A program made the position numbers and the translations under genes. The notes under the pieces were generated by a model that had not been told where the DNA came from, searched no databases, and saw only the letters and a list, made by a program, of their open reading frames with translations. A stretch of 64,000 nucleotides of DNA. Origin: Ascidiella aspersa (lineage: Eukaryota). This document shows positions 3,650 through 31,312 of this stretch, piece after piece. Numbering within the stretch: position 1 is the first letter of the stretch; the number at the start of each line of letters is the position of its first letter. The stretch spans positions 6,634,001 through 6,698,000 of the forward strand of contig OZ004613.1 of assembly GCA_963924565.1 (NCBI GenBank). The letters run 5' to 3'.

Positions 3650-4403
3650 TTAAGCCATAAAACCACCAGTTAATTCAAGTGTCGCTCCATTGACGTAAGA
3701 GCTTTCATCACTTGCCAGGAACAAACAAGCATTCGCAACTTCGACTGGTTTTCCAAAGCGCCCCATCGGAATCATTTCCTTCAAAAATTCCAGTCGTGAT
3801 TCGTCAGCTTTACGTAGAAGCGGTGTATCAATTAAACCAGGGGAGACAGCTTTGCACCTGACACCGTATTCACCCACTTCAATGCACGTCGTCTTTGTAA
3901 AGGCGACCAGCCCGGCTTTACTAGAAGTGTATTCCGAGCCATTTTCAAATCCCACCTTTGCCGCTGTGCTGGCGATGTTAACTATACTTTTATCCAAGTT
4001 TAAGTCGCCGGAGAAACACCTTCGTAAAATTGAAGACGCCATTTAGGTTGACGTCCATTATTTGGTTGAACAAAGCCGTGGTCGTTTCGACGATCGGAGA
4101 CATACGATCAATACCAGCGCAGTTGACTAAAACGTTGCAATTCAGTCCAAAATGAGAGTTTGTAACTGCCAAGGCCTCTGACACGGAATTCTCTTCAGCT
4201 ACATCGCATTGAATCATCCCAACTATGCCTTGATATTTGGCATTCAACTTCTCGTAGGCAGCTTTGAAAGTTTCAACATTCAAATCCACCATCATGACTT
4301 TGCAACCTTCGGCCAAAAAGCGTTCGCAAATAGCTTCCCCGATGCTCCCTGCGGCTCCAGTGACAATGCCCACTTTGCCGTTTAACCTACCAACTTGTGC
4401 CAT
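3650..4403 (-). pseudogene. HSD17B8-like classical SDR, frameshifted
   Basis: TGAAGSIG, NCAG and YTSSK motifs split over two ORFs; about 20 nt deleted near 3988-3992 relative to paralogs, giving a TAA after RRLKLG. Confidence 0.85.
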
Positions 4404-4409
4404 TATAAC

Positions 4410-4601
4410 CTGAAACGAGAAACCTCTTGACAAACAGCATAGTAAGTCGAAATGTCCGAATTGCTCTCAGGGCTGCCATTCTATATTTTGTTCTGCCTCA
4501 CCACCCATAGCATTTCCTCTACGTTTCCCCGCATTGGCGCGTTGATCTGTATCTGCGAGCCATATTATTACTATATAATGACGGTAAGTAGGATAACTTA
4601 C
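4410..4601 (-). promoter_or_regulatory. Candidate 5'UTR intron of the SDR copy
   Basis: GTAAGT at 4601-4596 and TTTCAG acceptor 6 nt before the ATG; the donor context is conserved in the homologous segment at 57661. Confidence 0.5.
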
Positions 4602-9600: not shown

Positions 9601-12600
9601 ATAAGAAGCCGCAACGTCCATGTAAACAAAAAGTACCGAAAAACTTATTTTCAGTATATACTCATATACTTGAAACTGACTTACAGGTTGATCTCTTTGT
9701 GAGATGACTTCAGTTAGGCGTTCCAGATTTGACCCAGCGATGTCGCAGTTGATCAACAACAGTCTGTTCATTTTGCTTGCACTTGTTGCCAGGCAATTCA
9801 ACTCATCTGATCTCAACATGTTCACTCTGAATTCTTCCATCTACATAAAATATTAGGGCATCGAAAGTTTTAAACTTATCGTCAAACCTGATAAATTAGC
9901 TGAATACGCGTAAAACGAAGTTCTACATCGGTTGGCAATGATAGATTTAGATTTAACTACATAGAGAAATAATATCGTCCCTACTATCAATAAATATAAG
10001 CGTATCATAGCACTTAATCATCCAGCTAAAAGCGTTTCAGTCTGTTTCAAATTTTTAATGGCCATTTTAAGAGCTTGGAAACATGACGTTTAATTGTCAT
10101 TTGTAAAGGCAAAAGTTACGGGGTTAAACCCACAAGCGCAAACGGTGACTATACATTTGTTAAATTGGCTTACTTTGTGCATTACTACTCCAGCTACCCC
10201 CAGTTTGATGGGACTTTCCCATGTAAAATAAGTGACCCACTAAGTTGCCTCTATAGGTTGCTCGCGTCCCCGTTTGGCATCTCAGGCCGTTAGACTCAAT
10301 CAACTTGACTGTGTCAATATTGACCGTTTTGACTAAACCATATCAATTGTTGCCCGTACGATGACTTACAGGTGTTTCTCTGCGTGCGATTGCTGCAGTA
10401 AGAACTTCGAAGCCGGACAGATCGTTCGTGTTGTCCAACCACAGGCGGTTTATCTTATGGACGCAGGTGGACAAGGCAGTGAAGTCATCTAATCCTGTTG
10501 TTCTCACACCTACTTGATCCATCTACAAAATAACAAAAATATATTTTAAATAGAGCGCCGTTCAGATAGATGAGGTGTTCTTAAACTTATGCACCGATAT
10601 GTTCGTGTCACCCGCCACTGCTGGCGTACTTGTGTCACTGTCGCGGCTTAAAAAGAGTAGATTCGCTCACTGAAGGAAATACATTGTAAGTTTTGCTAAA
10701 TAGACTGTTAAGAGATAGGTCGTGCCTTGGTCTAAAATGCGTATCCATGTAAAGAAAATATTTCTCATCCATATGAATCTTACTTTTAAAAACAACAAAA
10801 TAAAAAGCGTGTTTTTTTATCGAAAGAATAATTAGGTGAATTCGTTTTATAGTTGTTTTTACAAATATCTTACCAAGCAATAAAAAATGAGTTTTTAAAT
10901 AAATCCAAGTTAAGCAGTATACAATAGCCTATATACTTCCTATATACGTGCTAAAGTTGTAATTTTCAAGCAGTTGTTAACCTGCATGTGGGTTATTTCA
11001 ACGTGATAAGTGCATGGGTGAAGTAAAAGTTTTCATGGCCGTAATTTACAATGACATATTACGCTTTGTACGCTGTTACGCTTTGTACGATCTTAAAAAA
11101 GTGTTTCGATTTTTCTATGGATCTATGTCCGTTAATGCTTTTCCTTATTATTTCAGGCATGAAACAAATCATTCAGTGGCTAGAAAAGTTTTTGACCTAG
11201 CGGACTCCTTTTGGTGTATATTTTATATTTAAAATATGTTCAACCTTAAAACTTCCGACTGCAACGACGCCACCAGGCTTCGCAGAATTTTTATGACGAA
11301 AACCAACAAAATTGCTGTTTGTAGGGTTACTTACAGGTGTTTCTCTGCGTGCGATGGCTTCAGTAAGCACCTTTAAACCAGATATGTCACCCGTGTTGTT
11401 CAACCAGAGACGTTTTATCTCATGAACGCTGGTTGACAAGGCAGTGAAGTCACGTGTTCCAGTTGTCGTCAGACATACTTCCTCCAGCTACAAAATAACA
11501 ACAAGAGATGTTAGAAAAACCGGGGTCCCACATAAATCAGGTGTTTTCAAAAATGTGGTCGGTTCCCGCTATTGCTTTAAAGCTACCCGGTCTTGAGACA
11601 CATTTTCCAGCTACTTCGGGTTTTAACAGTCCATCAATGAATAAAGACATATTTGAAACGTTTAAAATGTTCCCTATACTTTATGCCTTTATCAAACTTC
11701 TGTCAAGGTTTATATGTTGGGTCTGGTAACGAATTTACTGGTTTTATTGCATTTCAAAGCGACGAATTCCAAAAATGTGTCATTAAACTCGTAAACAAAG
11801 GAAAAAGCAAACGGCAAGATAAGAAAAAAAGAAAACGTTAACAAACCTTGTGTTTGGTTTGCGCCATTGTCTCCAGTAACATTTTTAAACCGTTGCCAGT
11901 AAATGTGACTGAAGAAATAAAAGAGACGTTGCCGATGCTGATGACCAGCTCCCTTTGTGTTGCTCGAAGCACGTGACAGAGACTTGACACTTCACTGGGA
12001 AGGATAGTTCCACCCTCTATACGAAGCTCTTCGGGAAGAAAATCAGCCACTTCGGCATTGATTTCTTTATCGTTTAATTCCTGCGCCAAACTGCAAAGCT
12101 TAAACAAATTGGAGTTAAAGCTTTTGCCAGCGTTTGATAAAAGTTGAGATCCAAGCGAATCAATTAGGCCTTTGAGCATTTTTTTCTTGCTGGCAACATC
12201 ATCAGGCGAAATTTTAAAAATAGGCTTTAGCTTTAGTTGGATTCCCGTGTTAAGCAAACCGAAAAGAAACCGAAGAACCATTTCCCACGTATTACTTTCC
12301 AACTTTTTTAACAGCCCAGAAAATGTGGACAGGTCTGTATCGAACAACAGCTTAATTGATGTAAAAAACTCTTGCCACAGAAGATGAATGAAGAAGAACG
12401 CTTTATCCCCTTCCAGTATACAAAGATTAAGGTCGCTGGAAAAAACTTGCATGTTGAGAAAGTCCTCCAATCCTTCACTATCAAGTTCAACGTCATCGAA
12501 ATCTTTCTTTTCGAACATGATTTTGTCATTGAGCATTCCGTTTAAAGCCAGGTCAGAAAGTTGGCGCAAAATTGTGGGGTGTTCTTTAAATTTAGGTGAG

Positions 12601-15600
12601 CGAATACAATCGGACACAAAAGCCGCAAACACATCTGTGAGCGTAAATGTGCCATATTTAGTGCCATGCTTTAGGATGTAAGGTGCGACGGTTTTCGCAA
12701 ATATAGGAAGAAAGCATAGAGCTTTGGCAGCTGGGTTTTGACCAAGTGATTTTGTGACCTTCTCATAATCTTCTTTCTTCGGGCAAATTCGGCGAAAATA
12801 CATATCTTGAGAGCGTTCGTTGAAGCCGATTACCTTGACTACAAAGTGGGGCTTGCAACTTGGATGCAGCTTGTGCAATGCTCCTGGTCGTGAAGTGATG
12901 AGCTTGTGAGCATTGGGAAGAATGTCGCCACGGAGTAAGTTTTGTAGAATGACAACCGGCGTTGCGCGATCGTACAATCCGATCACTGGAGCATTCTTGT
13001 GAAGATTTTTGAACCTAGGTTCGTCCAAACCATCCAGGAAGATAAACAGCTTGTTGGATTTGGAAAGCCTTTCCAGTATTTGGTCATCTATTTCCTTTGT
13101 GTGTTTCCAGTTTGGGTTGGATGACAGCAATTCCAAAACGCCTATTTCTTTATTAAGATCTAAAGTCTTCAAGTATTTAAAAAGCCAATATCCTTCATCA
13201 TCTGCAGGTAATTTATCTACAAGCTCCTTTAGTGTCTGTATAATAGCTGTAGTTTTTCCAATTCCAGCTATTCCAGTCATACCGACCACGTTGCCATGCC
13301 TCTCCACGTAATCGTCATATGCTACTTGATTGCCAAATTGCTCACTTTGGGCTTTCTTTTTTGCTTCTTCTTTTGCAGCAGCAAATAGTTGATTGAGTTT
13401 AAGCATAGTGGAATTGACTTCGTTCTCCCGGAGTCGAGTCAATCCCAAGACACCAAACTCCTCTAATGCTGCTTGGAACTCCCGAATGATGTCAAGAGTA
13501 ACTGAGTTTCTTATTAGACTTCCGATGACCTTTTCAGCTGCTTTCTGGCATGCTTTTTGCCATAATGCTTCTAGCAATAAAAATGATATTTGAAAGCTTT
13601 CTTTAACGCCAAACAATTAGCTTTGAGAGCACACTTTTCTCACATTTGCTGGTTTTGGGCAAAATGCAGCTCACACAAAATTTTTGTTGTGGCTTTATCT
13701 GGAGAATAATGACCAAATTAATAGGGGTAATACTTTACATTAAAACTGTGTTTTTGTAACTGTATTTCTTCGTGATAAAGTGTGTTGTTTTTCAAAACAC
13801 CTAATTAAGTTAGTTTAGCCACGGCGATGTAACAATGCATTATAATTGCTTTAAATAACCCAAGCAAGATGCATTGCAATGCTTTTAAGAGCAAACTCTG
13901 TAAAAACTTATATTATAACTACCATTTGCAAGTTGCAACTATGTTATTTTCATTGGTAAAGTATTCACTGGGTATAGCCTATAACGTGACATTTTGCCTA
14001 ACTGCGTGATTAACCCAACCCAGCCACTTATCAGTTATTAATAATTAATTAACGCCCTTAAGTCGGTTTTACTTCAACGCGCATTACGAGCGAACGTTAA
14101 GCTAAAAATACGGGCCTGTTTAAGCGTAGGCTAGCCACACATCAGTTATTTTTTTCGGGTTTATGTAAAACCCTTTAAAATACACTTAGTTGATATTTTG
14201 ACATATCATAATAACAAACAGCTAAAAAAGACCCAAGAAAAACGAAACGCTAGGTATTTAGAGCATTGTTGGGTTCAAATCAGATATATACAACTATCTG
14301 AAACAAACACTAAAGTCGAGCTAAACCTAAAGCGATAAAACTTTTTTTAATGAGTTTTATTGCAGAAAAAGCTAAGTAATTTAAATTTTGCTATTTCTTA
14401 GACTGGCGGTCGGCAACCTCTTTCTAGTCACGAGCCTAAACCAAACTCACCCCAGCATGGTGGGCCGTACTGAATTTCTACAAACGATTTTGTAATACAA
14501 ACATGTGGCTTTTGAGCATTTAGTCATAAAAACTCTCATTTGTTGACTCAACCATGATTTTTTTGGCAAGTAAGTCTTATTATATGCGTTAAGTAAGTAC
14601 GTTTTAAATTATACGCGTAGTGCGTTAAGTTATACTGTTATTTAAGTTGAAAACAATTTAATTTGGAAGATGATGTGACGCATTGGGTACATCAAAATAC
14701 ATACTGCCTATACTCTTTTTTGATATGTATATCATAAACCTGAGATGTCCAACCCGCGGCCCGCCTGATATTTACGTGCGGCCCACCACTTATTGTCACT
14801 TTCAGTAGCCTTTAATTAAAACAATTGTTTAGAATATCATCAAAACGTGTAGAACGCTCAGTTTTTGATTTAGGCCTTATTTTATTTTTTCTAAGACTAT
14901 AATCGAGTCTAAAGTCGCATTTCAACATCCATCGAACACTTTTTGCACCCATCATTGCTAAGCAAGGTGGGTGTTTTTCTAAATGTGTGTTTTTGCGGAC
15001 CGCTTCAGGAAAATATATCAGCCCAAATATGTAAACTCAATTCTTCACGCTTTGCAATAATAAAAAAAATAATAATTGTGCTCGAGTTTACTCTCGAAGA
15101 GAGGGTGTTTAGAAGTTAAGTTAAAATATATCTATTTATTTTTTAAGTTGGCGCTAACCATTGTAAGATGAGGTCGCTGTTGAGTCTTGAGCCACTACCG
15201 GTACCTGTTGGTTGACAAGGTAATTAAAGACGTTGCCCACAACGTTGTCAATTGGGCCTCGATGACCGTAAATGTCACCAATGTTTACATTCGTGGCAAC
15301 AATTTGACGGTTGTCTGCTGGTGGAGCCTGAGCTGCATTTCCATTCTGTCCAAAACAAAAGTGTTGAAGTCAAATTCGTTGATTCGTTTATAACTGTTGT
15401 AACATTTTGTTTTATCATCAGCAATTATATAACTTTTAAAACAATGTTTATCTAAGGTAAAAAAAAGTCCACATTGGAATTATTTCTAATAGGTGTTCAA
15501 AACTATCACTTTTAATGAAGAAATCTTTAAAATTATTGCCTACATAACTTTTATCCCAAATAGACATATATTTACAAGTTGTAATCATCGGGAAAATGCT

Positions 15601-15702
15601 AATAGAATTCTATAATGAAATATTTTATCATTGTTGCATTGTAATCACCATATTTGGGTCGGGTTGATTTGCTTCTTCGTTTCCGTTAGGGATATCGGCC
15701 AT
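6657..15702 (-). CDS. NLR (NACHT-LRR) immune-receptor-like gene, 10 coding exons, about 971 aa
   Basis: Exons 15702-15649, 15345-15159, 13570-11847, 11487-11335, 10522-10370, 9840-9685, 8733-8572, 8355-8218, 7765-7655 and 6734-6657. All are GT-AG bounded and phase-compatible, summing to 2916 nt with no internal stop. Confidence 0.8.
7358..7571. mobile_element. hAT-type MITE in the last NLR intron
   Basis: TIR AGTGGTTCTCAACC / GGTTGAGAAACACTG with perfect 8-bp TSD CTATAGGG. Confidence 0.85.
8218..11487 (-). CDS. Five phase-0 LRR exons (153, 153, 156, 162, 138 nt)
   Basis: LxxLxL repeats such as IKRLWLNN, MNRLLLINC and MRKLNLSHNKLG; four exons end CCT|GTAAGT and begin after TGTAG. Confidence 0.88.
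11847..13570 (-). CDS. NACHT NTPase exon of the NLR
   Basis: Walker A GIAGIGKTT, Walker B LFIFLDGLDE, sensor LITSRP, LCFLP, winged-helix FIHLLWQEFF; acceptor TTGCTAG (phase 1), donor AAG|GTTTGT. Confidence 0.93.
15159..15345 (-). CDS. NLR exon 2: N/Q/G/V-rich segment with RHIM-like motif
   Basis: GACAG acceptor; open frame NGNAAQAPPADNRQIVATNVNIGDIYGHRGPIDNVVGNVFNYLVNQQVPVVAQDSTATSSYN; phase-1 donor G|GTTAG matches the NACHT exon phase. Confidence 0.75.
15649..15702 (-). CDS. NLR first coding exon, copy 1 (MADIPNGNEEANQPDPNM)
   Basis: CCAAAATGGCC start context, phase-0 donor GTGATT, upstream acceptor CTTACAG at 15735-15734. Confidence 0.72.
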
Positions 15703-16371
15703 TTTGGTTTTCAGTATAAATCGGTTTTACAAACTGTAAGTCTGTTCGTAAAGTTAAAAGTTTATTATTTATTAATTAATATCTAATGATTGTCTCCGAC
15801 AGATATATTAACATTTATGAAACCTAATTAGTACAAACGGGTATTTTTGTAGTTCAGGGCTGGCTAACCGGTCAGAGACCAAGAGCCGCAATCTTTCTTG
15901 TTTAACAAAAAAGAGACACGCCATACTTATGGCACAACAAAAAAATTACCCCATTTTTTTCTTACTTTTTGCGCAGCTATATATACCGGTAATATTGCAC
16001 ACTATACCACAAAGAGATGACCAAGAATTTTTGTTTTTGGGGGTAAGCATTTAAAAGATGACGCCATAAAGTAGTTATATTGACGTCATAATTTACGTTT
16101 CTGTCCCCTTTTAGACGTTGGCCGCTTTTTATTGTTTTTTGTTTTTGATTGTTTTTTTTACGGCCCGCCTATATTAAAACAATATAAAGAAACTTCGTTT
16201 AGCGCTAGGCATCCGACAGGCCGTTTAGTAGGGATCCTGAAGTTGGTGTACCAGGAAATCACTTCGCGCGAGGCAGGGTTAAGTTTCTAAGCTTTTTACA
16301 GAAAGCATGGCGTATGATTATATAAGTAGGGCAATTATGTTGCACTATATAAGAACAAATTATATTGAATT

Positions 16372-16411
16372 CTCGACAAGCTTTCGCGCAACCATGGTTC
16401 ATCAGGTCAAA
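16372..16411 (-). ncRNA. Hammerhead motif with disrupted stem II (HHR-A, unit 1)
   Basis: Core CTGATGA/GAAA retained, but stem II reads CCAT/GCGC (two mismatches). Confidence 0.45.
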
Positions 16412-18090
16412 GTACAAAAAAAATGTGATTACCCTATTCATAATTAGACAAATATGGCCTTTTACAAAGAATTATTGTATAAGGAGATGATTTTGGCAAA
16501 CCAGTTGTGAGTGATTTACAAATGCTGAATGGTTACAAAAAACATCGTATAAGTTTGATTTAGGGGAAGAAAATCGTAAAAATGTGTTACCGTTTTAAAG
16601 ACTGTGTTTTCCCCATCACACCTGCCACAAAGAAAACAAAATTCGCATTGATCTAGTTTAACTTCAAAATAAATGCCATTTTGCCATTAAGTATTGTATA
16701 CTCCGTTTCTCATGACGTCACTACAGTGGCCAAAAAAGCAATATAAATTAAATTAAAACGTCTAAAATCAACAATAAAATTGCGACAGATTGTTAAATGT
16801 AAAATAAGAAGAGTAAAAAAAACAGTAATTTTGCATGAGCGTAGCCAAGCCTTATTGTACAGCGTTTTAACAAAAATATTGAGACATGAAAAACCTATTT
16901 TACTCTTGAACAGGTTTTTCTTTCAATAAATTTATTTGAACGAGAATGTTTTGTCCTAATTCTGTAGCAACTTTAACATTCCATTTCACTTATTAAGATG
17001 TATTAAAATGATCTTATATGGTATTCGACTACTAGCTTAAAAACAATGCAAAGGCGACAACGTTCAAGATTTCAAGGTTATTTTGTTCAGACCAAACAAA
17101 TGCAATCAATAGGCCTATTTTTTTTTAATATTCACTCAATAAAAGTCACGTAGTCGTATAAAGTCCACCGAATGATTGTTGACACTTGGGTCACGTGGTT
17201 TACCTGGTTTAGGCCAGTGTTGCAACTAACAAAAGATATATTACAACTCGATTTTAGCATAAACACTACAGTACAATCTATTTAAGTTTAGAGAAAGAAA
17301 ATTTATTTTTAAATTTTAAAAATGCAATATTGTTCATTAACAGCAACACGATATTTCAGTCTTGGTAAATTTAATTTTCAATTGTTCAATCCAGGGCTGT
17401 AGAGTCGAAGCCGGACTCCGGACTTGACTACAAGAGTCCCAAGTCCGATGTGCGCATGCGCAGTAGCATGTTCTGAATTAATAAGACACTACACTGTAAA
17501 TGGTCGAATGGCTTCATATATGCTGTTTAAGCGATGAACTAGGTTTACCTTACCGCTTAAATCAGTTACTCTCAAACTTTGTGTATCAAGCCCCACTTAT
17601 CTTTTCAAAAACGTTCGCGGACGACAAGACTAAGATTTTTGTTTAAGGGTGACGTCACACGTTACATTATAACGCAACGTCATCAAACATTTAATTATAA
17701 AAAACCCGCGTTTGGTTGATTCACAATGGCAACACTTTTGATTTAAAAGGATACGTTATGCATTAGGTTAAAAAAAACACTCACATTTTCACCTAATTAA
17801 TGACATTTATTTTGCTTTGCTTAAAACGGACAAAACATAGTACAAACGGTTGGATGCTAGAAATATGTATTTATATAGTGAAGTTGACGAAAATGTTTGA
17901 GGTTAGGCCATCGCCCGGTGTTCTTCCTTCTAGGCCCAGCCCTGAACCCTACATTATAGTTTTTTTACAATTAACATCACCAGTTTTGTTGTGGGTGCAT
18001 TTTAAATAATAAGCGATGTTTCAATGAATACGCTGTTACTTCCTGGCATTGTTTTAATTATAAAATTGCTCTTCCGGCAAATATATGCAT

Positions 18091-18132
18091 TGTCCTGAAG
18101 AAGATTGTCCGAATGTGGTCGAAACGTTGGTA
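18091..18132 (+). ncRNA. Hammerhead-like motif HHR-B at the apex of a long hairpin (copies at 23049-23090 and 28075-28116)
   Basis: CTGAAGA...GAAACGTT with wobble-rich stem II GATTG/TGGTC; flanked by imperfect inverted arms spanning about 18049-18178. Confidence 0.5.
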
Positions 18133-20702
18133 TTTTCATAAAATTTTGCCGGTAGAACAATTTTACAATTAAAACATTTCTTGTGCAATAGTATTTTGAG
18201 AATTTAAACATTTACTATTTTGAATCACTGAATCAATAAAAACAGACTGCTTACTACTGTTAAAAGTACAACATTTTTATTTAATAAAACATATTTTAGA
18301 AAAAATGAAATAAAATTAAAATATGCCAATTTATGTTTTTACTGATTTAAATCGCACGACGGTATTCTAAAATGTTAATAGCACGAACTATACAGAGAAA
18401 AATGCTGTATAAATGCTGCATTTTGAAGAATTAAATCTCACTATGTTGTTCACCAGGTTTGAGTGGGGCGTGTTAACACTTTCAACAGTGGCGCGATATC
18501 CCCTTATTTGGGCACAACAGGTTGGTAGTAGGCAGTTCTTTTGTGTAATCAGCTTATCAGGGCATATAGGGCTAGCTAGCAGGCACCTTTTCGTAATTTT
18601 GCGGAGCCATCTTTTCGTGAATGCGTTATGACGCAAGCGAACATGACTGGCACTAATATATGAAGGCGACGGTTGCAAAAAGAAGCTAGCAAACATAATG
18701 TACTTGTCGCTGGTTATCGCGAAGCCTTGGGGGAGTCAGAAAAAGCACTTCACGTTGTTGTTTGTGGCTCAATTTCAACTCCATCTAATTGCTCGATGGA
18801 CTTTGTGTTGTCGCATTAAAGGGTTCCTGTGCGCTATTGCGAAATCTCTTTGCGTTGCCAATTAGGCCTCCGTGGTTGCTCAAGATAAAATAAGCACAAC
18901 ACATGGTTTAAAAGATGCAGCTTCTTAACGTCTGTCAGTTACATTTAAACTAACAGAGTCGCTCTAGGTATCCGTTAAGATTAGGGAACCCGCAACAGAC
19001 TTTAATTGATTACAAAGCAAAGTATTAATAATATGCAGTTGTAATTGTATAACTATATCGTTTAAAACCTTTTGTTCACTGACACTTTTCCGTTTAATAA
19101 ATTGCAAAGTTTAAAGTTGTGATCTTACCAAACTAATAGAACACATCAATAAACTTTGCAGATCAGCGCTCGCGAAAAATTTCACCCATAAACTCTACTG
19201 ACGTTACACTCAAATCGGCTCTCTACTGCCACAATAGGCCACGTTAGAGCGAAAACATGACAACGTTAAATGATGACGCATATACGTTTATATATGCAAT
19301 TAGTCGTTATACAAATTCCATTACGTACTTAATTCGCCTACGTCATGCTTTTCGTTTATTCGATAGTCTGGAAAACGCGCAAACGAGGGTTCATACAGCT
19401 CCTGAGTTATTTCATGTAACATCATTTCTGATATAAGCTGCTGCTACCAGGCTAAGTAATATAAATAAAAAAAGTCTCCTCTGGTACTTGTAATTCTTTA
19501 GTCACCCAGGCGAATGTGACTTGCATAGGTTGCCGAAACGTTGGTAAAGAATTACAATCATTTCCTACATCTTAGATGGTATTCGTATTTAGGGATGCGA
19601 TGCTCGATAATTTGAGCAAAACTAGCCGGTACACCGATAGCAAATGACGCCATTACTATAAGCTTATAATCAAAACTGTGGGCATTAAAACGTGCAAACG
19701 TAATGAGTCCGACTTGGGCATGTGAATACCAAATTACGAAACTCAAGGTCGTAAACTGATAATTGTAAAGGTGGAATAGCATATATGGCTGAATATTTTT
19801 CAACCATGTATTGTGGGTAAATGAACCTCCCATGGGTGAATTGCTGAATACACACCTTATTTGAATTACGTAAATTGGTGAAATACAGGCTGTAGAGGCG
19901 GAGTCGGACCCAGGTTAATTTTTTTAGCTGAAGTCGGACTCGGGTTATTCTTAACCGACTCTTATTCTTCGCACTTAAAAACAAACAAAAAATTAAGATA
20001 TTCTGTTCTATAAAACATTCAAACCGTTGTCCATACAAACTGCTGACTGTAAGCTATAACACAAGCTGTCAAAATACTTGTTTCAATTATAAAGATAAGG
20101 AGGTAATTCGGCTAATATATGTACTTAAAATATCTTGCGTGAATCCCTGAAAACTCTTTGGTCAACGGGTCTCAGTTTAAAACCGTTCAATTGAAAAGTG
20201 AAACCATTTTGTAGGCTACCATTTAAAGGCAAATATTATTTGGTAAAAGTAAAACTTCCTATATTTTATCAAATGGGGTTTGTTAATGTGACAGCTTGGT
20301 TATCGAATACGAAAACAGTACACAATATTTATCAACAGTGCCACATGACCGTCTTTTTTTACATACTGAAACGTTTGTTTAGTATAAATTTAATCAACTT
20401 TTGTTTGCACTTGGACAATGCTTAAACAATCCAAAAGTTACGTAGCGTAAGACAATGCTAAACACGTGCACTATGGTATAGTCAAAAAGTCCAACATGAA
20501 ACAACGTTTAACCAAGCTGTGTTTACACTGGAATTATTTTTAATAAGTGTTCAAAACTATCACTTTTAATGAAGAAATCTTTAAAATTATTGCCTACATA
20601 ACTTTTGTCCCAAATAGACATATATTTACATGTTGTAATCATCGAAAAAATGCTAATAGAATTCTATAATGAAATAGTTTGTCATTTTTGCATTTTAATT
20701 AC

Positions 20703-20756
20703 CGCATTTGGGTCGGGTTGATTTGCTTCTTCGTTTCTGTTACGGATATCGGCCAT
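20703..20756 (-). CDS. Duplicated NLR first coding exon, copy 2 (MADIRNRNEEANQPDPNA)
   Basis: Homologous exon in repeat unit 2 with intact ATG context, acceptor and GTAATT donor. Confidence 0.5.
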
Positions 20757-21281
20757 TTTGGTTTTCAGTATAAATCGGTTTTACAAACTGTAAGTCTGTT
20801 CGTAAAGTGTAAAAGTTTATTATATATTAATTAATATCTAATGATTGCCTTCGACAGATATATTAACATTTATGAAACCTAGTTAGTACAAACGGGTATT
20901 TTTGTAGTTCGTTAAGCATTTAAAAGATGAAGCCTTAAAGTAGTTATATTGACGTCATAATTTACGTTTCTGTCCTCTTTTAGACGTTGGCCGCTTTTTA
21001 TTGTTTTTTGTTTTTGATTGTTTTTTTTTACAGCCCGCCTATATTAAAACAGTTTAAAGAAACTTCGTGCAGGGCTTGGCATCCGACAGGCCGTTTAGTA
21101 GGGATCCTGAAATTGCTGTACCAGGAAATATGGCCTTATAAACTTATTAAATAGTGTAAATCGTTCGCGCGAGGTAGTCAGGATTAATTTTATAAACTTT
21201 TTACAGAAAGCATGGCGTATGATTATATAGGCTGAATAGGACAATTATGTGGCAATATATAAGAACAAATTGTATTGAATT

Positions 21282-21321
21282 TTCGACAAGCTTTCGCACA
21301 ACCGTGCTTCATCAGGTCAAA
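21282..21321 (-). ncRNA. Minimal type I hammerhead ribozyme, intact core (HHR-A, unit 2)
   Basis: TTTGAC-CTGATGA-A-GCAC(GGTT)GTGC-GAAAGCTT-GTCGAA: stems I and II pair, stem III is the palindrome AGCT. Confidence 0.7.
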
Positions 21322-24300
21322 GTACAAAAAAAATTTGTTTACCCTATTCATAATTAGACAAATATGGCCTTTTACAAAGGATTATTGTTGGCAAACCAGT
21401 TGTGATTTACAAATGCTGAATGGTTACAAAAAAAACATCGTATAAGTTTGATTTAGGGGTAGAAAATCGTAAAAGTGTGTTACCGTTTTGAAGACTGTGT
21501 GTTCCCAATTACACCTGCCACAAAAAACAAAATTCGCTTGATTTAGTTTAACGTGAAAATAAATGCCAGTGTATTGCTGTGGCTTATCAAGAGTCACTCA
21601 TGTCTAGGGTTGTTTAACATTTTGTTCTGATATCCACGGTTTTTGCAATAAGTATTGTATAGTCCGTTTCTCTGATAAATGACGTCACTACTGTGGCCAA
21701 TTCAACAATATAAATAAAATAAAAATGTCTAAAGATCCAAAATAAAATTGGGACAGATTGTTAAATGTAAAGTAAGAAGAGTATTAGACAATAATTTTGC
21801 ATGAGCGTAGCCTTTGTACAGCTTTTCAACAAAAAGAATGAGACATGGAAAACCTATTTTACGCTTAAATAGGTTATTCTTGCAATAAATTTATTTGAAC
21901 GAGAATTTTTGTCCTAATTCTGTAGCAACTTTTACATACCATTTCACTTATTAAGATGTATTTAAATGATCTTATATGGCATTCGTCTACTAGCTTAAAC
22001 ACAATGCAAAGGCGACAACGTTCAAGATTTCAAGGTTATTTCGTTCAGACCAAACAAATGCAATCAATATGCCTATTTGTTTTTAATAATCACTCAATAC
22101 AAGTCACGTAGTCGTATAAAGTCCACCGAATGATTGTTGACACTTAGATCACGTGGTTTACCTGGTTTAGGCCAGTGGTGCAACTAACAAAAGATATATT
22201 ACAACTCGATTTTAGCATAAACACTACAGTACAATCTATTTAAGTTTAGAGAAAGAATATTTATTTTAAAATTTTAAAAGTGCAATATTGTCCATTAACA
22301 GCAACACGGTATTTCAGTCTTGGTAAATTTAATTTTCAATTGTTCAATCCAGTGCTGTAGAGTTGAAGCCGGATTCCGGACTTGACTACAAGAGTCCCAA
22401 GTCCGATGTGCGCATGCGCAGTACCAAGTTCTGAACTAATAAGACACTACACTGTAAATGGTGGAATGGCTTCATATATGCTGTTTAAGCGATGAACTAG
22501 GTTTACTTTACCGCTTAAATCAGTTACTCTCAAACTTTGTGTATCAAGCCCCACTTATCTTTTCAAAAACGTTCGCGGACGACAAGACTAAGATTTTTGT
22601 TTGAGGATGACGTCACACGTTACATCATAACGCAACGTCATCAAACATTTAATTATAAAAAAACCCGCGTTTGGTTGATTCACAATGGCAACACTTTTGA
22701 TATAAAAGGATACGTTATGCATTAGGTTAAAAAAAACACTCACATTTTCACCTAATTAATGACATTTATTTTGCTTTGCTTAAAACGGACAAAACATAGT
22801 ACAAACGGTTGGATGCTAGAAATATGTATTTATATAGTAAAGTTGACGAAAATGTTTGAGGTTAGGCCATCGCCCGGTGTTCTTCCTTCTAGGCCCAGCC
22901 CTGAACCCTACATTATAGTTTTTTACATTTAACATCACCAGTTTTGTTGTGGGTGCATTTTAAATAATAAGCGATGTTTCAATGAATACGCTGTTACTTC
23001 CTGGCATTGTTTTAATTATAAAATTGCTCTTCCGGCAAATATATGCATTGTCCTGAAGAAGATTGTCCGAATGTGGTCGAAACGTTGGTATTTTCATAAA
23101 ATTTTGCCGGTAGAACAATTTTACAATTAAAACATTTCTTGTGCAATATTATTTTGAGAATTTAAACATTTACTATTTTGAATCACTGAATCAATAAAAA
23201 CAGACTGCTTACTACTGTTAAAAGTACAACATTTTTATTTAATAAAACATATTTTAGAAAAAATGAAATAAAATTAAAATATGCCAATTTATGTTTTTAC
23301 TGATTTAAATCGCACGACGGTATTCTAAAATGTTAATAGCACGAACTATACAGAGAAAAATGCTGTATAAATGCTGCATTTTGAAGAATTAAATCTCACT
23401 ATGTTGTTCACCAGGTTTGAGTGGGGCGTGTTAACACTTTCAACAGTGGCGCGATATCCCCTTATTTGGGCACAACAGGTTGGTAGTAGGCAGGTCTTTT
23501 GTGTAATCAGCTTATCAGGGCATATAGGGCTAGCTAGCAGGCACCTTTTCGTAATTTTGCGGAGCCATCTTTTCGTGAATGCGTTATGACGCAAGCGAAC
23601 ATGACTGGCACTAATATATGAAGGCGACGGTTGCAAAAAGAAGCTAGCAAACATAATGTACTTGTCGCTGGTTATCGCGAAGCCTTGGGGAAGTCAGAAA
23701 AAGCACTTCACGTTGTTGTTTGTGGCTCAATTTCAACTCCATCTAATTGCTCGATGGACTTTGTGTTGTCGCATTAAAGGGTTCCTGTGCGCTATTGCGA
23801 AATCTCTTTGCGTTGCCAATTAGGCCTCCGTGGTTGCTCAAGATAAAATAAGCACAACACATGGTTTAAAAGATGCAGCTTCTTAACGTCTGTCAGTTAC
23901 ATTTAAACTAACAGAGTCGCTCTAGGTATCCGTTAAGATTAGGGAACCCGCAACAGACTTTAATTAATTACAAAGCAAAGTATTAACAATATGCAGTTGT
24001 AATTGTATAACTATATCGTTTAAAACCTTTTGTTCACTGACACTTTTCCGTTTAATAAATTGCAAAGATTAAAGTTGTGGTCTTACCAAACTAATAGAAC
24101 ACATCAATAAACTTTGCAGATCAGCGCTCGCGAAAAATTTCACCCATAAACTCTACTGACGTCACACTCAAATCGGCTCTCTACTGCCACAATAGGCCAC
24201 GTTAGAGCGAAAACATGACAACGTTAAATGATGACGCATATACGTTTATATACGCAATTAGTCGTTATACAAATTCCATTACGTACTTAATTCGCCTACG

Positions 24301-24654
24301 TCATGCTTTTCGTTTATTCGATAGTCTGGAAAACGCGCAAACGAGGGTTCATACAGCTCCTGAGTTATTTCATGTAACATCATTTCTGATATAAGCTGTT
24401 GCTACCAGGCTAAGTAATATAAATAAAAAAAAGTCTCCTCTGGTACTTGTAATTCTTTAGTCACCCAGGCGAATGTGACTTGCATAGGTTGCCGAAACGT
24501 TGGTAAAGAATTACAATCATTTCTTACATCTTATGGTAGTCGTATTTAGGGATGCGATGCTCGATAATTTGAGCAAAACTAGCCGGTACACCTATAGCAA
24601 ATGACGTCATTACTATAATCTTATAATCAAAACTGTGGACATTATAACGTGCAA

Positions 24655-24919
24655 ACGACTTGCGCATGTGAGTACCAAATTACGAAAGTCGAGGTCGTAA
24701 ACTGATAATTGTAAAGGTGAAATAGCATATATGGCTGAATATTTTTCAACCATGTATTGTAGGTAGATGAACAGCCTATGGGTGAATTGCTGAATCCACA
24801 CCTTATTTGAATTCGGTAAATTGGTCAAATACAGGCTGTAGAGGCGGAGTCGGACTGAGGTTACTCTTTTTTTGGCTGAAGTCGGACTCCGGCTATTCTT
24901 AAACGACTCCGCAGCCCTG
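24655..24919. mobile_element. GGAGTC-repeat hAT-like MITE fragment; relatives at 17392, 19705, 22350, 27635, 30330 and an inverted copy at about 61405-61810
   Basis: End CGACTCCGCAGCCCTG, GAGTCGGACT repeats, internal sequence matches the reverse complement of 61540-61735. Confidence 0.6.
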
Positions 24920-25793
24920 GTTAAAAATACTACCACTTGACATCATCTATCGGCTAAGATCCGCTGATGTAGGACCTTCCTACTCATATTCATATATGGC
25001 TCAGTGGTCCTCAGACTTCGTGGGCATATTTTACTCCCTTAAAACAATTTACGTTCGAGCATTTACTTACAAACAAAGAAAAAATTAAGATATCCTGTTC
25101 TATAAAACATTCAAAGCGTTGCCCATACAAACTGCTGACTGTAAGCTATAACACAAGCTGTCAAAATACTTCTTTTAATTATAAAGATAAGGAGGTAATT
25201 CGGCTAATATATGTACTTAAAATAACTTGCGTGAATCCATGAAAACTTTTTGGTCCACCGGTCTCAGTTTAAAGCCGTTCAATTGAAAAGTGAAACCATT
25301 TCGTAGGCTACCATTTAAAGGTGAATATTAGTTGGAAAAGTAAAACTTCCTATATTTTATCAAATGGGGTTTGTTAATGTGACAGCTTGGTTATCGAATA
25401 CGAAAACAATACACAATATTTATCAAAAGTGCCGCATGGCCTGCTTTTGTTACATACTTCAACGTTTGTTTAATATAAATTTAATCAACTTTTGTTTGCA
25501 CTTGGACAATGCTTAAACAATCCAAAAGTTACGTAGTGTAAGACAATGCTAAACACGTGCACTATGGTATAGTCAAAAAGTCCAACATGAAACAACGTTT
25601 AACCAAGCTGTGTTTACACTGGAATTATTTCTAATAGGTGTTCAAAACTATCACTTTCAATGAAGAAATCTTTAAAATTATTGCCTAAATAACTTTTGTC
25701 CCAAATAGACATATATTTACATGTTGTAATCATCGAAAAAATACTAATAGAATTCTATAATGAAATATTTTATCATTGTTGCATTGTAATCAC

Positions 25794-25847
25794 CATATTT
25801 GGGTTGGGTTGATTTGCTTCTTCGTTTCTGTTACCGATATCGGCCAT
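25794..25847 (-). CDS. Duplicated NLR first coding exon, copy 3 (MADIGNRNEEANQPNPNM)
   Basis: Homologous exon in repeat unit 3 with intact ATG context, acceptor and GTGATT donor. Confidence 0.5.
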
Positions 25848-26561
25848 TTTGGTTTTCAGTATAAATCGGTTTTACAAACTGTAAGTCTGTTCGTAAAGTG
25901 TAAAAGTTTATTATATATTAATTAATATCTAATGATTGCCTTCGACAGATATATTAACATTTATGAAACCTAATTAGTACAAACGGGTATTTTTGTAGTT
26001 CAGGGCTGGCTAACCGGTGAGAGACCAAGAGCCGCAATCTTTCTTGTTTAACAAAAAAGAGACACGCCATACTTATGGCACAACAAAAAAATTACCCCAT
26101 TTCTTTCTCATTCAAACACTTAGTTTTTGCGCAGCTAAATATACCGGTAATATTGCACACTATACCACAAAGAGATGACCAAGAATTTTAGTTTTTGGGG
26201 GTAAGCATTTAAAAGATGACGCCATAAAGTAGTTATATTGACGTCATAATTTACATTTCTGTCCCCTTTTAGACGTTGGTCGCTTTTTATTGTTTTTTGT
26301 TTTTGATTGTTTTTTTTTACGGCCCGCCTATATTAAAACAGTATAAAGAAACTTCGTTTAGCGCTTGGCATCCGACAGGCCGTTTAGTAGGGATCCTGAA
26401 GTTGGTGTACCAGGAAATCATGTCTTAAGAACCTATTAAATGCAGTAAATCGTTCGCGCGAGGCAAGGTTAAATTTCTAAGCTTTTTACAGAAAGCATGG
26501 CGTATGATTATATAAGTAGGGCAATTATGTGGCACTCTATAAAAACAAATTGTATTGAATT

Positions 26562-26601
26562 CTCGACAAGCTTTCGCACAACCATGCTTCATCAGGTCAA
26601 A
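26562..26601 (-). ncRNA. Minimal type I hammerhead ribozyme, intact core (HHR-A, unit 3)
   Basis: As unit 2, with stem II GCAT/GTGC (one wobble). Confidence 0.65.
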
Positions 26602-29199
26602 GTACAAAAAAAATTTGATTACCCTATTCATAATTAGACAAATATGGCCTTTTACAAAGGATTATTGTTGGCAAACCAGTTGTGAGTGATTTACAAATGC
26701 TGAATGGTTACAAAAAAACATCGTATAAGTTTGATTTAGGGGTAGAAAATCGTAAAAGTGTGTTACCGTTTTGAAGACTGTGTGTTCCCAATTGCACCGG
26801 TCACAAGAAACAAAATTCGCTTGATCTAGTTTAACGTGAAAATAAATGCCAGTGTATTGCTGTGGCTTATCAAGAGTCACTCGAGTCTAGGGTTGTTTAA
26901 CATTTTGTTCTGATATCCACGGTTTTGGCGATAAGTATTGTATAGTCCGTTTCTCTGATAAATGACGTCACTACTGTGGCCAATTCAACAATATAAATAA
27001 AATAAAAATGTCTAAAGATCCAAAATAAAATTGAGACAGATTGTTAAATGTAAAATAAGAAGAGTATTAGACAATAATTTTGCATGAGCGTAGCCTTTGT
27101 ACAGCTTTTTAACAAAAATATTGAGACATGGAAAACCTATTTTACTCTTGAACAGGTTTTTCTTGCAATAAATTAATTTGAACGAGAATGTTTTGTCCTA
27201 ATTCTGTAGCAACTTTTACATACCATTTCACTTATTTAGATGTATTTAAATGATCTTATATGGTATTCGACTACTAGCTTAAACACAATGCAAAGGCGAC
27301 AACGTTCAAGATTTCAAGGTTAATTTGTTCAGACCAAACAAATGCAATCAATAGGCCTACTTTTTTTTAATAATCACTCAATGCAAGTCACGTAGTCGTA
27401 TAAAGTCCACCGAATGATTGTTGACACTTGGATCACGTGGTTTACCTGGTTTAGGCCAGTGGTGCAACTAACAAAAGATATATTACAACTCGATTTTAGC
27501 ATAAACACTACAGTACAATCTATTTAAGTTTAGAGAAAGAATATTTATTTTAAAATTTTAAAAGTGCAATATTGTCCATTAACAGCAACACGGTATTTCA
27601 GTCTTGGTAAATTTAATTTTCAATTGTTCAATCCAGGGCTGTAGAGTTGAAGCCGGACTCCGGACTTGACTACAAGAGTCCCAAGTCCGATGTGCGCATG
27701 CGCAGTAGCAAGTTCTGAACTAATAAGACACTACACTGTAAATGGTCGAATGGCTTCATATATGCTGTTTAAGCGATGAACTAGGTTTACCTTACCGCTT
27801 AAATCAGTTACTCTCAAACTTTGTGTATCAAGCCCCACTTATCTTTTCAAAAACTAAGATTTTTGTTTGAGGGTGACGTCACACGTTACATCATAACGCA
27901 ACGTCATTAAACATTTAATTATAGAAAACCCGCGTTTGGTTGATTCACAATGGCAACACTTTTGATTTAAAAGGATACGTTATGCATTAGGTTAAAAAAA
28001 ACACTCACATTTTGTCCGAATTAATGACATTTATGTTTTAATTATAAAATTGCTCTTCCGGCAAATATATACATTGTGCTGAAGAAGATTGTCCGAATGT
28101 GGTCGAAACGTTGGTACTTTCATAAAATTTTGCCGGTAGAACAATTTTACAATTAAAACATTTCTTGTGCAATAGTATTTTGAGAATTTAAACATTTACT
28201 ATTTTGAATCACTGAATCAATACAAACAGACTGCTTACTACTGTTAAAAGTACAACATTTTTATTTAATAAAACATATTTTAGAAAAAATGAAATAAAAA
28301 TTAAAATATGCCAATTTATGTTTTTACTGATTTAAATCGCACGACGGTATTCTAAAATGTTAATAGCACGAACTATACAGAGAAAAATGCTGCATAAATG
28401 CTGCATTTTGAAGAATTAAATCTCACTATGTTGTTCACCAGGTTGGAGTGGGGCGTGTTAACACTTTCAACAGTGGCGCGATATCCCCTTATTTGGGCAC
28501 AACAGGTTGGTAGTAGGCAGTTCTTTTGTGTAATCAGCTTATCAGGGCATATAGGGCTAGCTAGCAGGCACCTTTTCGTAATTTTGCGGAGCCATCTTTT
28601 CGTGAATGCGTTATGACGCAAGCGAACATGACTGGCACTAATATATGAAGGCGACGGTTGCAAAAAGAAGCTAGCAAACATAATGTACTTGTCGCTGGTT
28701 ATCGCGAAGCCTTGGGGGAGTCAGAAAAAGCACTTCACGTTATTGTTTGTGGCTCAATTTCAACTCCATCTAATTGCTCGATGGACTATGTGTTGTCGCA
28801 TTAAAGGGTTCCTGTGCGCTATTGCGAAATCTCTTTGCGTTGCCAATTAGGCCTCCGTGGTTGCTCAAGATAAAATAAGCACAACACATGGTTTAAAAGA
28901 TGCAGCTTCTTAACGTCTGTCAGTTACATTTAAACTAACAGAGTCGCTCTAGGTATCCGTTAAGATTAGGGAACCCGCAACAGACTTTAATTGATTGCAA
29001 AGCAAAGTATTAACAATATGCAGTTGTAATTGTATAACTATATCGTTTAAAACCTTTTGTTCACTGACACTTTTCCGTTTAATAAATTGCAAAGATGAAA
29101 GTTGTGATCTTACCAAACTAATAGAACACATCAATAAACTTTGCAGATCAGCGCTCGCGAAAAAATTCACCCATAAACTCTACTGACGTCACACTCAAA

Positions 29200-29837
29200 A
29201 ATCTTTCGTACGATCGATAAAACAAGCTTACTTTGAATCCTACCTCGTGTGATCACAACAAACCAAAACCACGTGGTCCAAAAAACATGGTAAAAGCAGC
29301 CTAGCAACCGTCACGCTTAGTCGCTTACGGAACCTTCTCTATCGTGCCTGTATTAGTTGTTTATTTAGTTTTTTGGCTGTTGTATCGTCCCCGCTCCATT
29401 CCGTTGCATTGTTATATTTTTGTTTCTGTTTGTTATACCCTTGTTCGTGTTTTATTGTATTGTTATCATTGTATTGTATTTAGTTATCATTGTAATTATT
29501 GTATTGTATGGCAAAGGTGCCATTCACAAATTGTGCCCCTTCTGTCGCTTATTTTGCACCGTTGCCCTTTTGTTTTTTGCTGTTTGTTTGTACCTCTTTT
29601 TGTTTTGTTTTTCTACAAAGGATGTTCACTGTTATAGCAGCCACTAATGTGGCCAAAATTATGTTGTTTCATTGTATTTAAATTTGTTTTTTAATGATTT
29701 AATTTGCCGTATACCTGTACATGTATTCTGATTATATTGCGGTCAGGGAGCGGCTGACTTTGATGACCTAACGGTCTTTCGCTGCTCCCTGGGAATCTAC
29801 TTCCCTAACAATAAACATATCTATCTATCTATATCTA
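29200..29837 (+). mobile_element. 5'-truncated non-LTR retrotransposon (CR1/L2-group-like), unique to unit 3
   Basis: Absent from units 1 and 2; TCAAA duplicated at both ends; ORF tail KSFVRSIKQAYFESYLV*, T-rich 3'UTR, stem-loop CAGGGAGC..GCTCCCTG, AATAAA then (TATC)n tail. Confidence 0.85.
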
Positions 29838-30117
29838 TCAAATCGGCTCTCTACTGCCACAATAGGCCACGTTAGAGCGAAAACATGACAACGTTAAATA
29901 ATGACGCATATACGTTTATATATGCAATTAGTCGTTATACAAGTTCCATTACGTACTTAATTCGCCTACGTCATGCTTTTCGTTTATGCGATAGTCTGAA
30001 TAACGCGCAAACGAGGGTTCATACAACTCCTAGAGTTCTTTCATGTAACTTCATTTATGATATAAGCTGTTGCTACCAGGCATAGTAATAAAAATAAAAA
30101 ACGATTTCCTCTGGTAC

Positions 30118-30187
30118 TTGTAATTCTTTAGTCACCCTGACGAAGGTGACTTACATAGGTTGCCGAAACGTTGGTAAAGAATTACAA
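30118..30187 (+). ncRNA. Minimal type I hammerhead ribozyme, intact core (HHR-C, unit 3); core-mutated copies at 19488-19557 and 24447-24516
   Basis: CTGACGA-A-GGTGAC(8 nt)GTTGCC-GAAACGTT; extended stem I TTGTAATTCTTTA..CC / GGTAAAGAATTACAA; units 1 and 2 read CAGGCGA. Confidence 0.68.
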
Positions 30188-31226
30188 TCATTTCCTATAT
30201 CTTAGATGGTAGTCGCATTTAGGGATGCGATGCTCGATAATTTGAGCAAAACTAGCCGGTACACCGATAGCAAATGACGCCATTACTATAATCTTATAAT
30301 TAAAACTGTGGGCATTATAACGTGCAAACGACTTGCGCATGTGAGTACCAAATTACGAAACTCAAGGTCGTAAAGTGTAAATTGTAAAGGTGGAATAGCA
30401 TATATGGCTGAATATTTTTCAAACATGTATTGTGGGTAAATGAACCGCCTATGGGTGAATTGCTGAATACACACTTTGTTTGAATTACGTAAATTGGTGA
30501 AATACAGGCTGCAGAGGCGGAGTCGGACTCAGGTTACTCTTTTTTTGGCTGAAGTCGGACTCCGGCTATTCTTAAACGACTCCGCAGCCCGGGTTAAAAA
30601 TACTACCACTTGACATCATCTATCGCCTAAGATCCGATGATGTCGGACCTCCCTACTCATATTCATCTATGCATCAGCGGTCCTCAGACCTTGCGGGCAT
30701 CTTTTACTCTTAATGTACGTCCGAACATTTACTTACAAACAAAGAAAAAAATAAGATATCCTGTTCTATAAACATTCAAACCGTTGCCCATACAAACTGC
30801 TTACTGTAAGCTATAACACAAGCTGTCAAAATACTTGTTTTAATTATAAAGATAAGGAGGTAATTCGGCTAATATATGTACTTAAAATATCTTGCGTGAA
30901 TCCCTGAAAACTCTTTGTCCATCGGTCTCAGTTTAAAACCGTTCAATTCAAAAGTGAAACCATTTAGTAGGCTACCATTGAAAGGCGAATATAATTTGGT
31001 AAAAGTAATACTTCCTATATTTTATCAAATGGGGTTTGTTAATGTGACAGCTTGGTTATCGAATACGAAAACAATACGAAATATTTATCAACAGTGCCAC
31101 ATGACCTGCTTTTGTTACATACTGAAACGTTTGTTTAATATAAATTTAATCAACTTTTGTTTGCACTTGGACAATGCTTAAACAATCCAAAAGTTACGTA
31201 TTGTAAGACAATGCTAAACACGTGCA

Positions 31227-31312
31227 CTATGGTATATCAAACGGTCCAACATGAAACTATGGTATAGTCAAAAAGTCCAACATGAAACTATGGTATAGTC
31301 AAAAAGTCCAAC
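31227..31312. repeat. About 31-bp tandem repeat x3 at the outer end of the triplication
   Basis: CTATGGTATAGTCAAAAAGTCCAACATGAAA units start at 31227, 31257 and 31288. Confidence 0.85.

Follow-up and report, generated by a model that had tools for sequence, protein, structure and literature searches.

The closest described relatives of the sequences considered here are the minimal type I hammerhead ribozymes (min-HHRs) of metazoan Penelope-like elements (PLEs). As described in PMC4209133, these have the core CUGANGA...GAAA, an unpaired nucleotide between A9 and G10.1, the G10.1-C11.1 pair and a loopless palindromic 15.1-16.1 stem, and they sit in the pseudo-long terminal repeat (pLTR) just after the open reading frame (ORF), mostly as dispersed single motifs from truncated copies and also as opposite-strand pairs; all of these features recur in the material presented below. 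The same source reports single min-HHRs as inactive and dimers or trimers as weakly active, and PMC6765202 describes very low rates even for dimers. One PLE hammerhead of Anolis requires the PLE protein for cleavage, and RNA-seq yielded no ends at its cut site (PMC11167929). Here we analyse three such motifs in a 64,000-nt stretch of the Ascidiella aspersa genome (GCA_963924565.1, OZ004613.1:6,634,001-6,698,000, forward strand; the window, whose numbering is used for all positions), where they stand upstream of the tandemly tripled ATG exon of a NOD-like receptor (NLR) gene. We conclude, with a probability of roughly 0.88, that they are an ordinary PLE fossil, that is, one truncated PLE end tripled by segmental duplication, whose copies are likely neutral passengers that would rarely if ever cut a host transcript.

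The motifs, 40 nt each, lie on the minus strand at 16372..16411 (unit 1), 21282..21321 (unit 2) and 26562..26601 (unit 3), with predicted cuts after 16378, 21288 and 26568, respectively. They share one layout, which runs through stem I, the core CTGATGA followed by one additional A, stem II closed by a 4-nt loop, GAA, AGCT, T and the returning strand of stem I. Stem I (TTGAC/GTCGA) has 5-6 bp in all three motifs, as against the 4-6 bp expected of a closing stem, stem III is a loopless AGCT palindrome in each unit with U at H17, and the conserved core C3-U4-G5-A6-N7-G8-A9, G12-A13-A14-A15.1, U16.1-H17 is present throughout. The units differ in stem II, which has four Watson-Crick pairs in unit 2 (GCAC/GTGC), a single G-U wobble in unit 3 (GCAT/GTGC) and two disrupting mismatches in unit 1 (CCAT/GCGC); the G10.1-C11.1 pair and the unpaired base after A9 are found in units 2 and 3 and are missing from unit 1, where 10.1-11.1 is C-C. 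For the isolated 40-mers, the predicted pairing probability of stem II is ~1.0 in unit 2, 0.86-0.97 in unit 3 and 0.0 in unit 1, and that of stem I is 0.88-1.0 in units 2 and 3 and <0.1 in unit 1. Both the sequence and these folds bear out the stem II states given in the original prediction (perfect, wobble and disrupted), and its placement of the motifs on the NLR strand about 530-720 nt above the ATGs agrees with the distances of 670, 526 and 715 nt found for the ATGs at 15702, 20756 and 25847.

The scan for type I hammerheads that had been proposed as a check gave a divided answer. A structure descriptor produced 4 matches in the window against a mean of 0.01 over 100 Markov controls, two of them being the motifs of units 2 and 3 and two belonging to a second family, with unit 1 failing to match; the Rfam covariance models returned no hammerhead family at E<=5 for the window or at E<=10 for 200 nt. 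On the grounds of sequence, all three count as genuine minimal type I hammerheads of the PLE type, lying on the NLR strand. A uridine at H17 makes a slower cleavage triplet, and this point was left out of the scoring. The second family is a min-HHR-like motif, CTGAAGA...GAAACGTT, with core starts at 18095, 23053 and 28079 on the plus strand, antisense to the NLR and likewise tripled. It sits in a long inverted repeat and has 4 genomic matches within 2 mismatches; the high contig depth nearby suggests a diverged repeat family.

Where do the motifs come from? With 21150-21450 as the query, 40 of 1,753 candidates were scored, and the match outside the window is limited to ~90-160 nt around the motif. 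The central 36 nt of the unit 2 motif, identical to the young sequence of a PLE family, have 238 exact genomic matches and 1,030 matches with at most 3 mismatches (526 on the plus and 504 on the minus strand; this mismatch-tolerant search yields counts rather than a mutation spectrum), and the reversed control has 0. Several of the 30 exact loci examined run 5' into a GIY-YIG frame, and many are back-to-back inverted pairs. The longest copy found (L172), itself 5'-truncated, encodes 488 aa in one frame, in which RVT_1 (E 3e-10) and GIY-YIG (E 2e-7) both score above the Pfam cut-offs. Its linker before GIY-YIG, CGKSRCELC, reads by eye as CX4CxxC, which falls within CX2-5CxxC; its hammerhead stands ~180 nt beyond the stop, and an inverted motif lies on the 5' side. 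The long copies are 97-99% alike, which suggests that the family was recently active. The motif thus belongs to a PLE family of about 1,000 copies whose long copies encode reverse transcriptase (RT) and GIY-YIG, and its earlier assignment to the PLE-type minimal type I class with a palindromic stem III, which was right, can now be tied to a parent element. An unrelated Penelope-like RT/GIY-YIG frame of 558 aa with an inverted partial copy (L073, 3-2494) was seen by eye ~6 kb from a parent-type element. Microhomology priming of PLE 3' ends was considered and dropped, as PMC11167929 makes no use of the term and its abstract calls the start sites non-homologous to the target.

The window copy of the element is a 5'-truncated insertion of ~150 nt from which the RT and GIY-YIG ORF is absent. 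It consists of a ~96-nt sense arm, the 3' pLTR remnant on the minus strand (16323..16418, 21232..21328 and 26513..26608 in units 1 to 3; 83%, 86% and 89% to a young copy), and a ~46-nt inverted pLTR tail of the same insertion on the plus strand (16426..16470, 21336..21384 and 26616..26664). The placement of these arms is identical in the three duplicated units, which indicates a single PLE insertion that was then tripled with the ~5-kb segment around it. The units, 84-99% identical to each other in self-BLAST, extend over 15471..20510 (unit 1, supported also by the three-way alignment) and 20525..25600 (unit 2), both with approximate ends, and 25616..31257 (unit 3, lengthened by ~640 nt inserted at 29199-29838).

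The tripling is confined to the ATG exon plus ~5 kb of upstream sequence; the rest of the NLR is single copy. The coding part of the ATG exon in unit 1 (15649..15702, minus strand as for all exons given here) has 18 codons, a GT donor and, 31-39 nt ahead of the ATG, a candidate splice acceptor; its duplicates in unit 2 (20703..20756) and unit 3 (25794..25847) are open and keep the GT donor. Coding exon 2 (15159..15345) is single copy with ends that agree with the paralogs, and the exon carrying the NACHT, WH and HD2 regions (11847..13570 by domain matches and gene model) lies in a frame at 11841-13616 with NACHT, NOD2_WH and NLRC4_HD2 domains. Joined into a three-exon model (15702-15649, 15345-15159 and from 13570), these exons give an uninterrupted reading frame that reaches 655 aa where the NACHT exon ends, and the splice sites agree with those of the paralogs. 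The original prediction had placed a hammerhead above each of three NLR ATG exons; the three duplicated ATG exons stand, and they belong to one NLR body, not to three NLRs. In contigs from one DNA run (X1), possibly from the sample that gave the window, depth is 54-84 on the near-identical unit core and 21-33 on the single-copy exons, an excess that lends rough support to the multiplication being real.

Are such motifs a common property of NLR upstream regions? The NLR family is large, with 138 genomic matches, most of the close ones on C7. We took upstream regions from 58 of these (9 kb each, one 6.9 kb), namely every match of at least 73% identity minus the window gene and one partial match. 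The PLE family is present upstream in 3 of the 58 paralogs, where 1.7 would be expected at genome density. In two of them, L084 and L121, the family copy is antisense, and in L121 it stands close to a weak match to the ATG exon; the third (L087) carries sense copies in tandem, with a 46-nt period, ~6.2 kb above exon 2. No sense hammerhead copy was found above the ATG exon in any of the 19 paralogs in which that exon could be located, with 4.9-7.3 kb above it scanned. The L087 array (G000:C7:6560100-6569100, reverse-complement ~495-850) contains five head-to-tail 46-nt hammerhead copies, some with core or stem changes, and would offer a natural close-range dimer substrate. Further 46-nt hammerhead pairs occur at C2:28621535/28621581 and C2:28629597/28629643.

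Two non-coding blocks on the minus strand upstream of the ATG exon, A (19151..19290) and B (18680..18856), are matched only in the C7 NLR cluster; block A is copied in unit 2 and split by the ~640-nt insertion in unit 3, and block B is copied in both. The blocks, candidate cis-elements, also recur locally in 2-4 copies upstream of several paralogs in which no ATG exon is present (L136, L138-L141); given these recurrences we do not claim them as a promoter, and they may be candidate enhancers or a local repeat. A further block at 16090-16231 was rejected as an NLR element, being a dispersed repeat. Paralogs often share an acceptor rich in pyrimidines 40-60 nt ahead of the ATG, and together with the shared upstream blocks this makes it probable that the transcript has an earlier piece 5' of the ATG exon. 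The hammerheads may accordingly be positioned in a 5' intron or outron of the NLR transcript; the putative outrons of Ciona described in PMC4691747 have a mean of 438 nt, and a tunicate-like host might likewise use SL trans-splicing.

The three-way alignment of the units has 278 variable columns out of 4542, with 107, 87 and 80 changes private to units 1, 2 and 3 and 4 columns in which all differ. Against this background the motif has 4 variable sites in 40 (p 0.31), and the changes private to unit 1 number 2/40 in the motif and 17/575 nearby (p 0.35). Since duplication the motif has therefore changed no slower than its unit, and the gradient from intact distal to broken proximal copies, which had been correctly observed, fits drift; it is a one-in-three ordering of two private substitutions. 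Two of the three motif changes of unit 1 are also found at the unrelated locus L171. Older dispersed copies were represented by the first 30 of 206 loci selected through a 16-nt anchor on the 3' side of the motif, a set that includes some pairs derived from a single insertion and no fewer than one match due to chance. Where both sides could be aligned, in 20 of these loci, differences amount to 83/800 positions in the motif and 40/340 in the flank, which points to neutral decay of the dispersed copies.

These data suggest a simple history. In the order that appears most plausible, a single 5'-truncated PLE end would have been inserted upstream of the NLR ATG exon, the ~5-kb segment with the insertion and the ATG exon would then have been triplicated, and drift would later have chanced on stem II of unit 1, the motifs presumably lacking a function. 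The literature gives the motif a putative role in the parent element, where dimers formed between pLTRs would process the PLE RNA, perhaps with help from the PLE protein; the copies in the window have no ORF, no close partner and no sign of constraint. If transcribed at all, the motif would most likely lie within a 5' intron or outron and be discarded.

Several observations weigh against this history or against the silence of the motifs that it implies. Both changes private to unit 1 fall on the 8 paired positions of stem II (post hoc p 0.02), and the catalytic core is intact in 3/3 units. Units 2 and 3 are intact, but only 2 of the 30 older copies are, and before duplication the motif had taken 0-1 changes in 40 positions, while the arms, counted by hand, had taken 6/77-9/90 (p 0.24 and 0.13, one-sided). 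This better preservation of units 2 and 3 is the chief result against our reading, though a weak one, reflecting a single, non-significant event ascertained through intactness. The candidate acceptor and the conserved blocks 2.3-2.9 kb 5' of the motif make transcription across it plausible. Finally, native PLE pLTRs are given as ~3 kb apart in PMC4209133, which puts the 5.3 kb between the motifs near the natural range, so that distance alone is no bar to a dimer of units 3 and 2.

The alternative that fares best departs least from the neutral fossil. Read-through RNA might occasionally be cut without selection, in cis, in trans with abundant RNA of the PLE family or with help from PLE protein, and the NLR would hardly be affected. 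We regard such incidental cleavage as unlikely, though clearly ahead of the other alternatives; it is compatible with the same origin and differs only in whether cuts occur. In its favor, the unit 2 motif equals the sequence of a young and recently active family (long copies 97-99% alike), and protein-assisted cleavage has been published (PMC11167929); the low in vitro rates reported in PMC4209133 tell against it.

Regulatory co-option of the window hammerheads is far less probable. The original prediction has a transcript that crosses units 3 and 2 dimerise through AGCU into a double hammerhead and cleave itself, the cuts falling at 26568 and 21288, with the result that distal-promoter transcripts are silenced or processed; we find this model very improbable, also in the form in which the unit 1 copy was selectively broken. 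It can draw on two intact distal motifs in sense orientation, on the open ATG exon with a GT donor retained by every unit, on a double-hammerhead fold for units 3 and 2 that can be drawn at -15.9 kcal/mol, and on the co-opted intronic and untranslated-region (UTR) hammerheads described for amniotes in PMC6155905. Yet the predictions favor two monomers (-18.4 kcal/mol) or a stem-II-swapped duplex (-24.5 kcal/mol) over that dimer, even before a roughly extrapolated loop cost of ~13 kcal/mol, and they have unit 3 misfolding in its 240-nt context (stem II P 0.02). The folding model also disfavors the dimer of the young family itself (-17.9 vs -20.4), so these energies discriminate poorly. More telling is that the motif derives from a single insertion not common to the paralogs, shows no constraint after duplication, and would direct its cuts into intron or outron sequence; block A, moreover, is interrupted in unit 3. 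Breaking unit 1 would be needless for sparing proximal transcripts, as a lone motif is inactive as a monomer regardless. The proposed regulatory role is left unsupported for a member of a ~1,000-copy family that is absent at the corresponding paralog position, and the original interpretation as a whole is partly supported. A related idea, about equally hard to credit, is that of a duplication sensor, silent in a single unit and cutting the read-through of two units, which would buffer or re-route expression once units have been tandemly amplified in a fast-evolving NLR cluster. Among the papers brought up by a single search on exapted retrotransposon hammerheads in host genes, none deals with a co-opted minimal PLE hammerhead.

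Slightly less credible again is an effect at the DNA level, in which the pLTR remnant would act as a promoter, enhancer or chromatin element and the hammerhead would be irrelevant. According to PMC6765202 pLTRs typically carry promoters, and 0.5-0.7 kb separate the remnant from the ATG exon, but just the final ~100 nt of the pLTR remain, the arms have diverged to 80-89% of young copies and the 58 paralogs are without a remnant at this position. The least likely reading, that units 2 and 3 are haplotypes placed in tandem by the assembly, could appeal to the lack of a junction-bridging contig among the X1 contigs listed, but there are three versions rather than two, and the depth contrast reported above, rough and possibly from the same sample, argues for real copies.

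The surroundings of the locus deserve a brief description. The NLR clusters at G000:C7 ~0.3-6.65 Mb and C8 ~0.3-1.75 Mb are very large tandem arrays in which nearly all NACHT frames are open, and the window NLR is the final close member at its side of the C7 array. A homolog search with its NACHT exon gave a single match, at 30%, and an atlas comparison for the NLR pointed to chordate NLR clusters. Exon 2 (15159-15345, minus strand) encodes a G/N/V-rich low-complexity stretch before NACHT with a RHIM-like, amyloid-signalling look by eye; a Pfam scan of this exon for a RHIM-like motif gave no match. Short repeated exon-like segments lie 3' of the NACHT exon at 9690-11490 on the minus strand (10345-10585 resembles 11310-11551 at 76%) and are probably leucine-rich repeat exons of the NLR. 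Around a dozen short-chain dehydrogenase/reductase genes and fragments occupy 3650-4470 and 35500-63500 on both strands.

How does the locus compare with the known systems? Its parent family resembles the endonuclease-bearing (EN+) PLEs with a Zn-finger-like linker, of the Neptune/Nematis type, which are described in PMC8557442 with a C-terminal GIY-YIG preceded by a Cys cluster, 5' truncation, an adjacent inverted 5'-truncated copy and a 30-40-nt tail at one end only; the likeness is in layout and linker, and the longest copy here is 5'-truncated (488 aa). With the domesticated amniote hammerheads of PMC6155905 (RECK and DTNB introns, Clec2 3' UTR) the window motifs share sense orientation, a place in a non-coding part of a host gene and retroelement ancestry. 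Those are presented there as conserved across species and canonical or discontinuous, whereas the window motif is minimal, young, one of about 1,000 and absent in the closest paralogs. Cleavage of the window pair in vivo would matter if true, in vivo min-HHR cleavage being still open in the accounts of PMC4209133 and PMC11167929. The 46-nt array at L087 is better suited to tests of dimer cleavage than the 5.3-kb pair of the window.

The head-to-tail repetition of the motifs also recalls retrozymes, the monomers of which are short, while the 5-kb unit here is made up of host DNA that includes an ATG exon along with several repeats unrelated to one another. What is held in common with the animal non-LTR retrozymes of PMC7229834 is the head-to-tail order of type I hammerheads. 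As compared with the Schistosoma min-HHRs, for which PMC4209133 gives a stem II of 7-8 bp, the window motifs have a stem II of 4 bp and U at H17. The work of Lunse et al. from 2017 reportedly deals with PLE minimal type I hammerheads as well. It is with this metazoan PLE class that the motifs are best compared, the difference being that their direct repetition stems from a host segmental duplication and not from a PLE tandem structure. The finding is an ordinary one, adding another PLE family with a minimal hammerhead and illustrating that host duplication can set such motifs in direct repeat.

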